DNA from: Nitrososphaerota archaeon
GTDB lineage: Archaea; Thermoproteota; EX4484-205; JAAOZP01
Direction of reading: 5' to 3'
Assembly (NCBI GenBank): GCA_011605725.1
Contig: JAAOZP010000016.1
Location: 1 to 63,562, forward strand
Length of the DNA: 63,562 bases
Of this stretch, positions 17,463-26,886 are shown piece after piece. The notes below the pieces were generated by a model. It was not told the origin of the DNA. It was given only the letters and a program-made list of their open reading frames with translations, and made no database searches. Made by a program: the position numbers and the translations under genes. The stretch's first letter is position 1, and every line of letters starts with the position of its first letter.

Positions 17463-18044
17463 CTAAAGGAGATTCGCCGCTTCTTCAACGATATCTATCG
17501 CCTTATCAATCATCGTAATCTTCTCTTCATCATTCATACCCTTGGAATCAAAGGACGCAATAAAATGGAACCTGTCTCCTTCGCTTCTGAGCGGGATATA
17601 AAAGATTATCTTGATCCCGCTCTTTCTGGTTAACTCCTCCGCGATCTCGTCGGCGTGTCTCAGCCAGTCGACTAATTTCTTCGAAGCCTTTTCAACCTCT
17701 TTCCATTTCTTCCTATCGCATATCATGTCCCACAGCTGGAAGGTGTCGAACATCCAGCGCTTCCGGCGGGACTCCCGCTCTAAGTAACCGTCAATAACTT
17801 CGGAGGGATCTCCTCGTGTTGGAGACCAGATGAAGATTCTGCCTTCAACGTCCTCATGCACCTCAGGGTATGCCCCACTACCTCTTACACACCATTTAAG
17901 CTTGGTTCCTTCGGGGAATTTGAAGTGAGGTTCCTTCTCTATATAATAGTCCGGTGGACTTAACCTCTCTCTTATAACCTCTGGGATATCGTACCGCTTG
18001 CGCAGGTGTTCCTTCACCCTCACTGCAAACTCATCCTCATTCAA
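17463..18044 (-). CDS. putative immunity protein for the upstream nuclease toxin
   Basis: TTGA overlap with giant ORF; C-half (DEIAEELTRKSGIKI..FIASFDSKGMNDEE) homologous to 37551-38210. Confidence 0.7.
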   Translation of the reverse strand: MNEDEFAVRVKEHLRKRYDIPEVIRERLSPPDYYIEKEPHFKFPEGTKLKWCVRGSGAYPEVHEDVEGRIFIWSPTRGDPSEVIDGYLERESRRKRWMFDTFQLWDMICDRKKWKEVEKASKKLVDWLRHADEIAEELTRKSGIKIIFYIPLRSEGDRFHFIASFDSKGMNDEEKITMIDKAIDIVEEAANLL

Positions 18045-21000
18045 CTGCTAGGCACCTCCTGCACAATCTCTATGTAGAGCCTTCCGGTGTTTTCGTCTAT
18101 CCAGACGATGATGATTATATAAGCATTCACGTCCTTCCTGACCTCATCGAAGAACTCAAGGCCGTGTTCCTTGATAAGCCGAATGTATCCTAGCTCTTCT
18201 TTTAGCTGTTTCCAAGCTTTCTCGTACTGTGTCTCAATATCTTCTAGATTCGCAGTAGACTTGACCTCCACAACTATTAGCCCTCCATCTTCGGATTCGG
18301 CAACGATATCCACGTGTCTCCCCGTATCAGGGATTGGCCTCTCTTTCTGTATTTTATCCCTACTTACCTTCTTCCGGAGTACGGGTACTTCTCCACTATC
18401 TTTCATCCTCCCAAACATGATATCCCTCACCATGTCCCCGTATTCTTGAGTTCGGCCGGCCTGCACCAATTCCTTAAGCCTCTGGTAGACTTCCTCTGAT
18501 TCTTGAATCATAACTTCTAGGTATGAACGAATAATGATATACTCCAACACATTAGCTCCTGAGGGCACGTTAATTTCGAGAGTACTAGTGCCGCAAGTGG
18601 CATACCTTGCGTTATCGAAGTAGGCCACCAACTTTAACTCGCCCTTCTTAATCTTTTCTCGTAATGCTTCAACGTTATAATATCCAAATACCTCTCTCAG
18701 CTCCTCAACCAGTTTAATTCTTTCCCGTCCCTCTAATGGAATTTTAAGGTAGTACTTCTCTCCCTCTTTCCACTCCCGGACGGAGATCGGAACGATTGAT
18801 TTATGACCTTCACACTCTATTATTAATAAGTTCCCCTCAGTACTTAATGTAGCACTATGCCAAGATCCATCCTTAAAAATAAGGCGAAAATCTCCGTCCT
18901 CATAGAATATGAACGAGATTTCAGCTCCATATATACTTCTTTGCATGAGTTGCGCTTTCATGGATGCTCCGTGCCTTTCACTCCAACTTTGTGGTTCTAC
19001 TTTCTTTATCTCTATCTCCCTTCCATCCACCATTAATCCATCTTTTGGACTGAAGACAAAATTAGAACCTCTAGACTTGAAGTGAACAGAGTAATCATAT
19101 TTGATGATAATAATTTCAACTTCTTTTTCAACCAGCTCCTTCAAAAGTCTTGCGGGGACACGGACATGGAGGAGATTGTTTGCTTCTTCTTTCTTTGTTG
19201 ACCACTCAAAAATCTTTCCATCCTCCTTCCTTATAGCTCTGATTAAGTAGAGGCCTTTTTCAAACAGTCCTCCATGCCTTACATATCCTGATGAGGGTAT
19301 TACTATTTTAAATCTATCAACAATTCTTTCCGTATTCTCAAACCTTAGCGTCTCCTCCAAAGCTGAAGCTTCAGATCTCATCAATTGAAATACCGTTACT
19401 GTAGCCAACATGCAGTTTCTCTGCACACTCTCGGGGTACTTGAACACTTTTTCGACAACACTTCTAAGCTTGGAGTTAGCAACTTCCCTATTGCCCCCGG
19501 ATGATGCGAGGGCTTCGCCGTAAACTCTTTTCAAAACGTCTAGGAGCCATTTCGCAGCATCGTATCCATCGGACCCAAGGTTTCTCTTAACGCAGTTTAC
19601 CAGCTCCAGGGCCTCGTTAGCGAGTTGAGTATCAGAGATAGAGTTATAGAAGGCTAAGATATCGTTCTCAATATTCTTAACGTATTCCTCGCTTTCCCTC
19701 TTAGCTTTCTCAATCGCCTCATCGCAGGTCTCTCCCTTCTTGACATAATCAGTTATTTTTCTAACTACATCTATCCTCTTCTCCCCGCTCAGCGCCTTAA
19801 GCCATTCAACGTTCTTCGCTAAAGTGTTTACAACATCCAGTGCCTGCGAGTCGGTTAGGCTGCTGAGCAGAATGGATTTGAGAAGCCCCTCCTTGAAATC
19901 TCTTCCAAATATGCTTCCCAGGAGCTCGCTAACGCTCTTCACCTGCTCGTAGAAAACCCTCTTATCCACGCTCGTCCAGACTATCCTCGTTTCAACTGTT
20001 TGGACTCCTACGAACGCGCCCGATGAGTATGAGAATAATAGCGTTTGAAGGTCCTTGCCGGTGTAGATTACCGTCGATGTCTCCCCATTTGGATAGACTA
20101 TGCTCAGGAGGCCCTGGTCAACTATGCCCCTCTGAGCCAGTTCAGCCTGGGTTATCGTCAGCGTTTCCCCGCTTGGCTTCGCAAGCAATCCAAGCTGGAG
20201 GCCCAGCGTGCTTGCCGATACGACGGCGGGCAAATAGCTTCCACCGTACAACGCCTTAGCCACGCCATCCTCGCCAACAACTATGCTCGTCCCACCTATT
20301 CTCCCGCCGAGAAGCATCTTGTTAAGCTCCCCTGTCTCAAGCGGGTTCTCATTGGGAACAAGCATCACCGAGGGGTCTTCAAGCCTCAGGACCATGCCGT
20401 CCCCGAATCTTATTGAGCCATCCATCCCCAGGATCCCCCTATCCATGCTAAGCTTCCCTTCTGAGAACCTGAACGCGTTTAACCCGAAGCTTTTCTCAAC
20501 CTGTTGCCTAAGGACAACCTTGATGCTTTGAAGGTCCTCCTTGAGGAGCTCGAAAATGGCTGGGGTGTGCTGCTCAGCCTTGAACGCGAAGACCATGTAG
20601 CTTTCTTCTCCAACAGTCTTCTCCCCGGCGTATGCCAGCATGCCTTCGATGACCACGTTTCCCCTTGCGAACTTGAATCTAACAACCGTCCCCTTTTGGA
20701 TGCTTGGGTAGAGCTTGACCCCTAGGCTCTTCTCGACACCCACCTCTATCCCTTCGTTGCTTATGCTGAGTATCCTCGCAACATCTGGGCCAAGCTTAGC
20801 CAGCTGCTCCAACGCCGCCTTTACCTCCGCTCGACGAAGCATCTCGACGAAGTCTCCCCTAGCTATTTGGGACAGCTGGAGGGCTTCCTCTGGGCTTAAC
20901 GTTAACAGGGGGCTTAGCTCAGACATTAGCGACGGGCTTGCGAGCCATTCCATCAGGTTTCCAGCATGCTGGCTTAGGAAGCCCTTGTCCATCTCAGACA

Positions 21001-25378: not shown

Positions 25379-26886
25379 AGCCCCACCCTAGCCTCCTCGT
25401 AAGCGGTTATCCCATTTCTATTCTCAGCGGGATGTATCGTTACCTGGAAGCCTGAGCCAGCTATGCTGAACGAGACCCTTCCGTTAAAGTCCGTTACTCC
25501 GCCCTGGTCTGTTTCGAAGCACCTGACTCTTAACCCGGCTATGGGACTATTGTCGTGGGCCCAGAAAGCCCTAGCGTTAACACTACCACCATTTCTCTCA
25601 GCTGAGATTTTAATGTGGGTGAAGACAAGGGTTAGTTTAGGCAGCCTTGTTGTAAGCTCAAGCTCATCGCTCCTATTCTTGGAGAAGAAGCTTACTTTCC
25701 TTGAGATGTTTAGCTCCTCGAAGGCCTTAACTGTAGCCGAGCCCGTTTCAACGCCACCCCTAATCTTCTCCGTAACCCATCCGTTTGAACAAAAATAGCT
25801 TATCGTCTGGTTGAAGGAAATCGTTGAGCCGCTATTCGTCCATATCTCCGAGCCTATCAGCATTCCTCCAACAACCCTGGTGTCCCTCTTAATCTCGGTT
25901 ACGAGGTATCTGGCGGAGGTGAAGCCGACCTCATCACCATTACTTATCGCTACAGCAAGCCTGCGAATCCCGACTTCCCCGGAGCCCTCGTCATAAGCGG
26001 CATTGATAACGTAGCCTTCGCTGACGCTGACCGATGGAACACTGTCTCCAACCCTGATCAGGACGAGGCTTGTGAAAACCCAACAATCCCTGTTAACCCC
26101 TTTGAAGACTGCTTTCTGAACACTCCCAGGTGTTCCGCAGCCTGTTTTCTCAAACCCCTTCCAAACAGCCTTCCAGCTCATGTTTCTAACGCCGCTAACC
26201 TGGGGGAGCCTGAACTCGAAGATGTGAGTCGCTTCTCCGTCCAGCGTTGCTTCAGCAGCATGAGACTCAGCGTTTATCGTCCCGCTCCCCTCAAGCCTTA
26301 TCTCCATGCTTGCGTATCCTATGGTGAACGTGTCGCTACCAGTCCTGTTTGTCCAGACAGAGGCGTGGATTAGGAGCCTGACGGTATGGTTCCCAGGGCT
26401 AAGGGTTGCAGCCCTGGAATAGCAGCTTGACCACCAGTATCCTGTTAGCTCATAGACTTTAACACCGTCAACATAGACCCTCAGGTACTTGTCGAAGACA
26501 TACCAGCGGTTATCGTAGGGAGGTGTTTGAGGATTATGGTCGTCGCCGCAGACGTATACGATGCCCAAAACTCCTTGGGGAATGTTAACGCTGGCCACGC
26601 ATTCCTTAGCGTCGCCGTAGGTACTCGGACCATTCGTAACGATTGTGAGATAACCAGTCCCACCGTACCAGGCTCTTTCATCAACAGAGTAAGCTATGCT
26701 CACAGTATCTGCCCTAAGGCTATTCCAAGAGTAGGATGAGGGCGTTGCATAGACGGTTGGCCCAGTGGATGGAGGGATTAAGCCAGATAGGAGGAGGGAC
26801 GCGAGGACAGGTGAAAGCAGTAAGGCGTAGAGAAGACCCCTCGGGCAGGTGCGCCCAACCATTCCAAATATGTTGCGCGTGAGCAA
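25375..26886 (-). CDS. secreted/surface beta-rich protein coupled to the giant ORF
   Basis: Signal/TM near N-terminus, VYVDG and TDFNGRVSF Ig-like motifs; abuts/overlaps giant ORF start. Confidence 0.7.
   Translation of the reverse strand: MLTRNIFGMVGRTCPRGLLYALLLSPVLASLLLSGLIPPSTGPTVYATPSSYSWNSLRADTVSIAYSVDERAWYGGTGYLTIVTNGPSTYGDAKECVASVNIPQGVLGIVYVCGDDHNPQTPPYDNRWYVFDKYLRVYVDGVKVYELTGYWWSSCYSRAATLSPGNHTVRLLIHASVWTNRTGSDTFTIGYASMEIRLEGSGTINAESHAAEATLDGEATHIFEFRLPQVSGVRNMSWKAVWKGFEKTGCGTPGSVQKAVFKGVNRDCWVFTSLVLIRVGDSVPSVSVSEGYVINAAYDEGSGEVGIRRLAVAISNGDEVGFTSARYLVTEIKRDTRVVGGMLIGSEIWTNSGSTISFNQTISYFCSNGWVTEKIRGGVETGSATVKAFEELNISRKVSFFSKNRSDELELTTRLPKLTLVFTHIKISAERNGGSVNARAFWAHDNSPIAGLRVRCFETDQGGVTDFNGRVSFSIAGSGFQVTIHPAENRNGITAYEEARVGL

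Follow-up and report, generated by a model that had tools for sequence, protein, structure and literature searches.

This report concerns a three-gene operon on a 63,562-nucleotide contig (JAAOZP010000016.1, contig C20 of its genome; hereafter 'the window', meaning the whole stretch of DNA that was analysed) from an uncultured hot-spring archaeon. We consider it likely that the operon encodes a polymorphic toxin–immunity system of Brockarchaeota-like Thermoproteota, in which the 193-residue protein P0002 serves as the immunity protein for a toxin of the PD-(D/E)xK nuclease superfamily, of a subtype here called group X, carried at the C-terminus of a giant protein of 2445 residues (P0001). A third gene, encoding the 503-residue protein P0003, precedes the other two. 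All three open reading frames (ORFs) are on the minus strand (P0001 at 18041–25378; other coordinates are collected in Table 1), and successive genes overlap by 4 nucleotides, with ATGA joining P0003 to P0001 and TTGA joining P0001 to P0002. These positions and lengths are exactly those given in the original prediction, which was made by a model from the sequence alone and which proposed a toxin operon framed by two tRNA genes. All computational checks put forward with that prediction agreed with it.

Polymorphic toxin systems are defined by a conserved body, a fixed junction, swappable tips, linked partner genes, orphan cassettes and poly-immunity (PMC3482391). It is the joint presence of these traits, with tips that are enzymatic and partners that follow them, that leads us to the assignment. 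The conserved body is evident from seven full-length paralogs, which are 40–94% identical up to about residues 1990–2005 and 10–20% identical beyond that point. The three closest database relatives share 80–91% identity over residues 1–1760 and carry three tail types that are unrelated to one another and to that of the window. The arrangement is thus the anticipated one of a conserved N-terminal portion, extending over ~1990 residues, a sharp breakpoint and a variable tip, and the closest relatives do not have a common C-terminus. Matches to P0001 among its relatives mostly stop at query residue ~2011–2015, and across the junction itself protein identity declines from 40–80% to 10–20%.

The same boundary is apparent in the DNA. 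When the window is compared with the contigs of two of these three closest relatives (L051 and L052), identity is 80–100% from position 26917, just upstream of P0003, down to ~19735, is 57–61% in the interval starting at 19541, and has the level of noise (~35%) from 19350 on, such that it steps from 75% to 61% to 35% across the junction region. At this breakpoint, the G+C content of third codon positions (GC3) falls from 0.6–0.69 to 0.39–0.49. The body is conserved, and its tail has been replaced by recombination at a defined junction. A cysteine, Cys1989 (19412–19414 in the window), is conserved in the seven aligned paralogs and is located ~10–15 residues before the tails diverge (FKYPESV..xC.L), and we propose it as a candidate site for processing. 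Searches of P0001 detected neither a HINT domain nor any other protease domain.

The tails are themselves mosaics. Their terminal nucleases can be divided into groups X, Y and Z, with the remainder as singletons, and the preceding ‘mid’ modules group differently. The mid module of the window’s tail is 51–57% identical to the mid modules of group Y tails, whereas its nuclease belongs to group X, being 55% identical to that of locus L020 and 27–31% identical to group Y nucleases. Therefore, we regard the window’s tail as a chimera.

The last 436 residues of P0001 are modelled confidently by AF2 (pLDDT 93.5) as the mid module (residues 2010–2289) followed by an alpha/beta domain (residues 2290–2445). 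Proteins of the PD-(D/E)xK (restriction endonuclease-like) superfamily have an alpha-beta-beta-beta-alpha-beta core, with the D...(D/E)xK residues located on core strands, and on the basis of the model the last 156 residues belong to this superfamily. The catalytic motif is formed by D2357, E2371 and K2373 (nucleotides 18260–18310), in keeping with the C-terminal D..ExK nuclease that had been proposed. A VIA structure search with this domain gave Z scores of 5.4–7.8, with restriction-endonuclease folds in nearly every top row; the matches include 3ijm (7.8), Card1 (7.7), AF1548 (7.4), NucS (7.1), Hjc (6.9), CidB (6.7) and the Escherichia coli CdiA-CT toxin 4g6u (5.5). A profile built from 34 tails matches the nuclease domain of Card1 (E=0.0026) with D..E.K aligned, and NucC appears as well. 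A shape search of the ESM Atlas with the tip retrieves PDDEXK_9, NERD, UPF0102 and PDDEXK_1 clusters, and five Pfam PD-(D/E)xK families match just below the gathering score, with none above it. A phmmer search of PDB sequences with the tail yielded no match, and Foldseek with the whole 436-residue model returned poor global matches only (TM ~0.1); it was the domain-level searches that were informative.

The D, E and K residues are invariant among 14 group X sequences, and all other tail classes likewise end in (P)D...(D/E)xK, apart from three tails with ExE. The tip therefore appears to have a toxin-type enzyme fold with an intact active site, and it is predicted to cut nucleic acid. Model and structure searches agree on a nuclease fold, and the expectation of a variable tip holds insofar as the nuclease subtypes are strongly diverged; however, all tips have the one PD-(D/E)xK fold rather than different folds. 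Card1, NucS/EndoMS, Hjc and AF1548-type proteins share this fold and the D...ExK motif with the last 156 residues. However, the sequence similarity is marginal, and in none of them does the nuclease form the C-terminal end of a giant membrane protein that is paired with a linked partner gene.

The gene that adjoins the tail varies with the nuclease. Homologues of P0002 (the ‘imm1’ family) follow group X tails in five other loci, and group X nucleases are followed by a co-directional P0002-like gene in 5 of 6 loci. Tails of the L012 and L028 types are also followed by co-directional imm1 genes (the P0002/P0069 family), which for the L028 type are either P0069-like or fusions of ankyrin repeats with a P0069-like domain. 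Such fusions of the imm1 family to ankyrin repeats occur twice, and ankyrin repeats have been catalogued among the immunity classes of bacterial systems, under the name Imm-ank (PMC3482391). Without exception, nucleases of groups Y and Z have next to them a convergent ‘type II’ gene (‘imm2’) of 230–270 codons, which is present as a tandem duplicate in one locus. Across ~20 loci, the family to which the adjacent partner belongs can be predicted from the nuclease subtype, and even in the chimeric tail of the window the partner matches the nuclease (group X) and not the mid module (group Y). Pairwise identities of nucleases and partners are correlated (r=0.68 over 10 pairs that are not independent). 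Judged from these sequences, the adjacent gene co-varies with the toxin domain, as the proposed pairing with the downstream gene implied. An overlapping immunity gene had also been proposed, and a P0002-type gene does overlap the giant gene, but it is one of at least three partner types. Three tails that have ExE in place of ExK (L013, L017 and L019) may be inactive, and a type II partner gene still adjoins all three.

None of the partner proteins has a transmembrane (TM) segment, which supports their interpretation as cytoplasmic immunity proteins, and P0002 also has no N-X-S/T sequon. No known family was found for any partner, whether imm1 (P0002 was searched against Pfam, PADLOC and NCBIfam) or type II (its profile has no match in PDB or Pfam). 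The profile of the P0002 family gave marginal matches to designed beta-propeller blades in PDB, which we do not trust. Relatives of P0002 were taken from the loci, given that a word-indexed search produced three only. Complex prediction for the nuclease domain with P0002 gave a median ipSAE of 0.38 (runs of 0.75, 0.01 and 0.38), and the best of three controls gave 0.00. At least 82% of contacts are common to the runs, and the partner pLDDT is at least 84. Of 80 solved complexes, 58 attain the ipSAE mark, as do 2 of 110 mismatched pairs; at ipSAE values of 0.60 or under, only 7 of the 80 solved complexes attain it, together with both mismatches. The prediction thus lends weak support to binding of the nuclease by P0002.

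Surplus tails and partners are found both in the window and elsewhere. An orphan tail cassette elsewhere in the window is composed of a pre-junction remnant (36630–36746), the end of a mid module together with a nuclease (P0068, 36832–37554) and an overlapping imm1 gene (P0069, 37551–38210). We considered the possibility that P0068 and P0069 (37051–38210) are a free-standing toxin–antitoxin pair, but rejected it because the pre-junction remnant and mid-module end are located just upstream. Right beside the operon is an imm2-like ORF that has no middle part of the family (residues ~41–138); the two tblastn segments meet at 27668/27669. This deletion joint coincides with a (GC)n tract, GTGCGCGCGCGC, at 27664. 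The window also has an imm1 remnant (Table 1), as a third element of this kind. In total, the genome has 14 imm1 and 6 imm2 matches versus 5 nuclease matches. Truncated-tail arrays in loci L027, L019, L018 and L017 keep 40–100 conserved pre-junction residues per tail, and the partner gene of each tail comes directly after it. Locus L051 has a displaced L028-type tail, together with its ankyrin partner, just upstream of the main gene, whose present tail is of the Z type. Outside the P0001 family, a 1162-residue protein with another scaffold (G000:C19:1-4820, locus L030) ends in a related tail of mid module and nuclease, which is followed by two imm1 genes. Orphan cassettes and poly-immunity loci are thus present, including the cassette and the imm2-like ORF in the window, and together with the excess of immunity genes they favour a weapon used between strains over a defence nuclease that acts in cis.

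Palindromes of the form TAGCGC..GCTA/(GC)n are found just downstream of both tail-plus-partner cassettes in the window, at 17321 and 17420 (after P0002) and at 38256 and 38330 (after P0069), and others are located at 16385, 33930 and 62020. The 3′ border of a cassette may be an end-joining scar, and its 5′ border may result from homologous recombination in the pre-junction sequence.

The body of P0001 begins with a polytopic membrane domain. A hydropathy scan reveals hydrophobic segments between residues 8 and 257, which we read as ~7 helices and which correspond to the N-terminal TM segments originally foreseen. The positively charged loops agree with a topology in which the N-terminus is inside and residue 261 onward is outside. 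The domain has no match in Pfam. PrsW-type proteins have about 8 TM helices and conserved EExxK/R, FxxxE/H and HxxxD/N motifs, but in an alignment of 14 N-terminal domains these motifs, CPBP motifs and any conserved His are absent, and the invariant polar residues are D40, E83, N92, K98, S186 and T202.

Beyond the membrane domain is a stalk with many sequons. They are confined to residues 293–800, at positions conserved in the seven paralogs, over which 53 are observed versus 20 expected. Sequons are nearly missing from residues 801–1270 (1 versus 17.6 expected), absent from residues 1401–2009 (0 versus 13.6) and rare in the tails (1 versus 7.0), a depletion from residue 801 that fits a part of the protein that must stay unglycosylated. 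The sequon-free portion opens with a CBM4/9-like domain (residues 804–926, nucleotides 22601–22969, with similarity spanning about residues 785–940). The Pfam CBM_4_9 match is below threshold (E=0.0053, 17.6 bits versus a cutoff of 25.9), and the protein-atlas feature score to CBM_4_9 clusters is 0.94, with 169 of 256 features shared; we therefore treat the CBM-like segment of the original prediction as a lead only. The ectodomain has no phmmer match among PDB sequences.

A glycosylated stalk with a CBM-like domain might also be expected of an ordinary surface adhesin or glycan-binding protein, whose housekeeping nuclease would scavenge or take up extracellular DNA and whose downstream genes would be unrelated neighbours. 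Membrane-bound nucleases for DNA uptake do occur in bacteria. Nevertheless, such a protein would not explain why tails are replaced at a fixed junction, why partners follow nuclease subtype in ~20 loci or why orphan cassettes exist, and we consider this explanation very improbable.

The ectodomain is followed by weakly hydrophobic, Gly/Ala-rich segments (residues 1274–1384), which had been singled out in the prediction and which AF2 models as three long and two short helices with the invariant motifs ARHPFE..GGF and ALADPTMDD..R. Residues 1385–2009 are then helical, beta and again helical (AF2 pLDDT 71.6). The VIA search with a model of residues 1271–2010 found generic helical bundles only (Z<7) and no informative fold match, and an atlas feature search of the same residues gave scores below 0.85. 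Within this region, residues 1271–1760 (20099–21568 in the window) occur in two allelic classes, which are 57–90% and 29–41% identical to the window’s copy. The class is independent of tail type, and the two invariant motifs are unchanged across both classes. By analogy with the receptor-binding region of CdiA, this segment could be a second specificity determinant.

The two allelic classes would likewise suit a function in kin recognition or cell–cell adhesion. A comparable archaeal proposal is VARTIG of Thermococcales, a large surface protein with a hypervariable C-terminus made by recombination and with variable downstream genes (PMC8416519). Tail and partner would then be tags of self and non-self during aggregation, fusion or DNA exchange, and the nuclease would come into play only once cytoplasms have mixed, or never. 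A surface protein that is large, glycosylated and equipped with a lectin-like domain is well suited to this role, some tails have lost the catalytic Lys, and there is an archaeal precedent for a polymorphic-toxin-like organisation to which no function has been assigned (PMC8416519). In VARTIG, the variable part is an Ig domain, and an enzymatic tip is lacking. An argument against kin recognition is that group X has the D/E/K triad without exception and that most tails keep it intact. A pure tag needs neither a conserved active site nor a tightly linked cytoplasmic partner. We therefore regard kin recognition as improbable, although less so than a simple adhesin.

A more serious competitor is a membrane-tethered defence or suicide system that acts in cis. 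Its ectodomain would sense an envelope event, such as virus attachment or damage, and a signal passed through the helices at residues 1274–1384 would free the nuclease from P0002 or the type II inhibitor, such that invading or own DNA is degraded; viral counter-defence would drive the diversification. An odd number of long helices at residues 1274–1384 would put the sequon-free C-terminal 1060 residues in the cytoplasm, where the partners also are, and the best profile match is to the defence nuclease Card1, with NucC found too. On the other hand, nothing significant was found in PADLOC, and the orphan cassettes, the tandem and fused immunity genes and the ~20 partner versus 5 nuclease matches are hallmarks of inter-strain toxins and are unlike known abortive-infection modules. 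The sequon-free zone also begins 470 residues ahead of the helices. For this last reason, we dropped an earlier placement of the C-terminal half in the cytoplasm that was based on the absence of sequons, given that the depletion starts at residue 801, well before any TM segment. All considered, we judge a cis-acting defence function to be unlikely, yet the best of the three alternatives.

For the polymorphic toxin that we favour, the following sequence of events can be proposed. P0003 and the giant protein would be made together, and the latter would be anchored in the producer’s membrane by its ~7 N-terminal helices, projecting a glycosylated stalk and then a sequon-free distal part with a CBM4/9-like, presumably glycan-binding, domain. 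Contact with a neighbouring cell would lead to delivery of the tail into the target, with release probably occurring near the conserved Cys-containing junction and with the Gly/Ala helices helping. The tail would then cut nucleic acid inside the target, while in the producer and its kin cytoplasmic P0002 would bind and block the cognate nuclease. Tail and partner would be swapped as a unit by recombination in the conserved pre-junction sequence, with orphan cassettes elsewhere in the genome as the source. We infer nuclease activity, toxicity, neutralisation, contact dependence, exit of the tail from the producer and its entry into the target.

Several observations weigh against this proposal. 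One is that no recognized trafficking or processing module, and no known secretion or delivery module, was detected by Pfam, VIA or motif alignment, and export of the tail is thus inferred. Pfam searches with the whole of P0001 and with its segments found no RHS, FhaB/TPS, FHA, Hint, LXG or PrsW module at E≤1, and the original prediction had likewise seen no RHS, FhaB, Hint or LXG module. At the same threshold, P0001 has no PAAR/VgrG (type VI secretion), LXG/WXG (type VII secretion), Rhs/YD, HINT or MuF trafficking module, and Pfam places no TPS domain, FHA-1/FHA-2 repeats or CdiB Omp85 families in P0001 or P0003. Overall, Pfam gave nothing usable for the three whole proteins, and PADLOC and NCBIfam gave nothing significant for any part of the system. 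In addition, all tips have one fold, whereas classical systems mix many toxin folds, and three of the tails show ExE. The predicted binding of P0002 is weak and unstable between runs, and the genome’s second full-length paralog, on contig C5 (G000:C5:73692-80762, locus L011), lacks an adjacent imm1 gene although the motif of its group X nuclease is intact. Were the three long helices at residues 1274–1384 to span the membrane, the whole C-terminal half, including the nuclease, would be located in the producer’s cytoplasm, a location that would suit a cis-acting system at least as well. Absence of sequons after residue 800 is not decisive for topology because residues 801–1270 are sequon-free without a preceding TM segment. 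The C5 paralog might be protected by one of the orphan imm1 genes. Its neighbour is a convergent gene for a 474-residue protein of no known family.

Among known systems, the closest in organisation is CdiA/CdiI of bacterial type V secretion. In both systems, the main protein is very large and cell-bound, and its conserved body passes at a sharp junction into a C-terminal tail that can be exchanged. Both also have an immunity gene directly downstream and orphan tail-plus-immunity cassettes that keep a piece of the pre-junction sequence. In both, the tail has two independently recombining parts with the nuclease last; in CdiA-CT these are an N-terminal entry domain and the C-terminal toxin. One CdiA-CT (PDB 4g6u) also has the PD-(D/E)xK fold (Z 5.5). 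Unlike CdiA, the archaeal system has no TPS domain, FHA repeats, VENN motif or CdiB partner by Pfam. Its anchor is a membrane domain of seven helices at the N-terminus, in an organism that lacks an outer membrane, its upstream partner is a putatively secreted 503-residue protein of no known fold, and all of its tips share one fold. PrsW-dependent toxins with Tox-REase tips are also comparable. In these proteins an N-terminal polytopic membrane domain, proposed to serve as conduit and processing site (Zhang et al. 2012, PMC3482391), is joined, sometimes via a long filament, to a C-terminal toxin with the restriction-endonuclease fold. However, the archaeal membrane domain is not matched by PrsW in Pfam and lacks both an invariant His and motifs of the EExxK/HxxxD type, the linker of ~1,750 residues has no known folds and includes a second hydrophobic cluster, and the immunity families are new.

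A bolder version of our proposal is that the operon specifies a self-contained archaeal machine for contact-dependent delivery, CdiA-like in function but independently evolved in single-membrane cells and accompanied by two new immunity families. The sequon-free C-terminal 1,640 residues would be held at or in the producer’s membrane. The lectin-like domain would bind the neighbour’s glycan coat, the Gly/Ala helices (ARHPFE, ALADPTMDD) would then insert in the target membrane, and the mid-plus-nuclease cassette would be threaded into the target cytoplasm. We offer this version tentatively and consider it doubtful.

The family appears to be home-grown. Of the 16 genomes of the same hot-spring genus that were searched, 14 contain relatives of P0001, at several copies in each, and among 41 relatives essentially no others do; to this can be added the lack of bacterial relatives and of a known delivery module. 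An index of 5.8 billion proteins contains 20 relatives of the body, and 1.84 billion representatives yielded 42 matches to the tail, with no bacterial relatives. Named relatives are hypothetical proteins of Thermoproteota metagenome-assembled genomes (MAGs), and relatives of the system come from MAGs labelled Brockarchaeota, Thermoproteota or Nitrososphaerota. In a 2012 survey, classical systems were confined to about 15 archaeal genomes, each from the Euryarchaeota, and were regarded as bacterial imports (PMC3482391). Contact-dependent or polymorphic toxin systems have been predicted in archaea by comparative genomics (Makarova et al. 2019, as cited in PMC8416519), with none characterised experimentally according to the citing paper of 2021. 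We found no published description of the present family in the literature, although the predictions of Makarova et al. might list it, and we read the scaffold and two or three partner families as new. If our interpretation is correct, the system would provide a handle on protein passage between single-membrane, S-layered archaea and on strain-level competition in hot springs, with a compact pair formed by a 156-residue nuclease domain and its 193-residue partner.

Table 1. Features of the operon and related elements in the window, in order of position
Feature	Position	Strand	Basis
tRNA-Asn(GTT), left border, pointing inward, four inserts	17101..17242	+	ARAGORN after manual insert removal
P0002, predicted cytoplasmic immunity-like partner, imm1 family, 193 aa; TTG start overlaps TGA of giant gene	17463..18044	-	ORF, hydropathy
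Predicted terminal PD-(D/E)xK nuclease, aa 2290-2445, subtype X	18044..18511	-	AF2, VIA, profile, atlas, Pfam
Beta-rich mid module of exchangeable tail, aa 2010-2289; GC 0.396, GC3 ~0.4	18512..19351	-	AF2, composition
Recombination junction, last conserved stretch (FKYPESV..C1989..) before variable tail	19352..19550	-	Protein/DNA identity drop
Helical/beta/helical region, aa ~1385-1943, sequon-free	19551..21226	-	AF2 (pLDDT 71.6)
Gly/Ala-rich weakly hydrophobic helices, aa 1274-1384	21227..21559	-	Hydropathy, AF2, alignment
Distal ectodomain, sequon-free, aa 801-1270, with CBM4/9-like domain	21569..22978	-	Sequon count, Pfam, atlas
Proximal ectodomain/stalk, aa 261-800, 7-9 conserved N-X-S/T sequons	22979..24598	-	Sequon count
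Polytopic membrane domain, ~7 helices, aa 1-260	24599..25378	-	Hydropathy
P0003, putatively secreted or anchored partner, 503 aa; overlaps start of giant gene	25375..26886	-	ORF, sequons, conservation
tRNA-Ile(GAT), right border, pointing inward, two inserts	27059..27173	-	ARAGORN after manual insert removal
Orphan type II (imm2-family) partner-like gene, internal deletion, right beside operon	27432..28067	+	hmmsearch E=1.8e-24
Orphan tail cassette	36630..38210	+	Profile and tblastn matches
imm1-family (P0002-like) gene remnant, C-terminal part only	62868..63047	-	Profile and tblastn matches

The P0003 gene is kept upstream of the giant gene in every locus where that end is present, and its counterpart in L051 is 92.6% identical. 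An N-terminal hydrophobic segment and six N-X-S/T sequons fit a secreted protein. Pfam gives a weak CE2_N match only, and phmmer finds no match among PDB sequences. Parts of the system are reused in further loci for large surface proteins of the same genome (G000:C4:72144-82785, loci L024/L032, and G000:C7:53029-56592, locus L031). Among their products are a 1712-residue protein that is 35% identical in the distal ectodomain and proteins of 968–1587 residues with P0003-like domains. A JGI record (L051) labels a relative with 87% identity as a ‘transcription elongation GreA/GreB family factor’, a label that no sequence analysis here backs.

The inward-pointing tRNA-Asn and tRNA-Ile genes that had been proposed as the frame of the operon are recognized by ARAGORN, but solely after four and two inserts, respectively, are excised. 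In the unedited sequence, neither ARAGORN nor Rfam (at the gathering score and at E≤1) finds a tRNA beside the operon; tRNA-like sequence was spotted by eye in both flanks, and the inserts were cut by hand before ARAGORN was run. Among the 36 tRNAs that ARAGORN finds in the genome there is no second Asn or Ile(GAT) gene, and for this reason both border genes are probably functional copies. One insert of each gene contains the same (GC)n-like tract (GTGCGCGTGCGCG and its complement), which in the tRNA-Asn gene is located at 17118.

Housekeeping genes flank the operon, including those for a Pelota/eRF1-like protein, a Rieske protein and dehydrogenases. Two other tRNA genes in the window, tRNA-Leu(CAA) at 970–1068 (99 nucleotides) and tRNA-Thr(CGT) at 3490–3583 (94 nucleotides), have lengths that suggest introns. 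The host genome is 2.23 Mb and 93% complete, and its archaeal signal recognition particle RNA is located in the window at 53614–53929 (141.9 bits).

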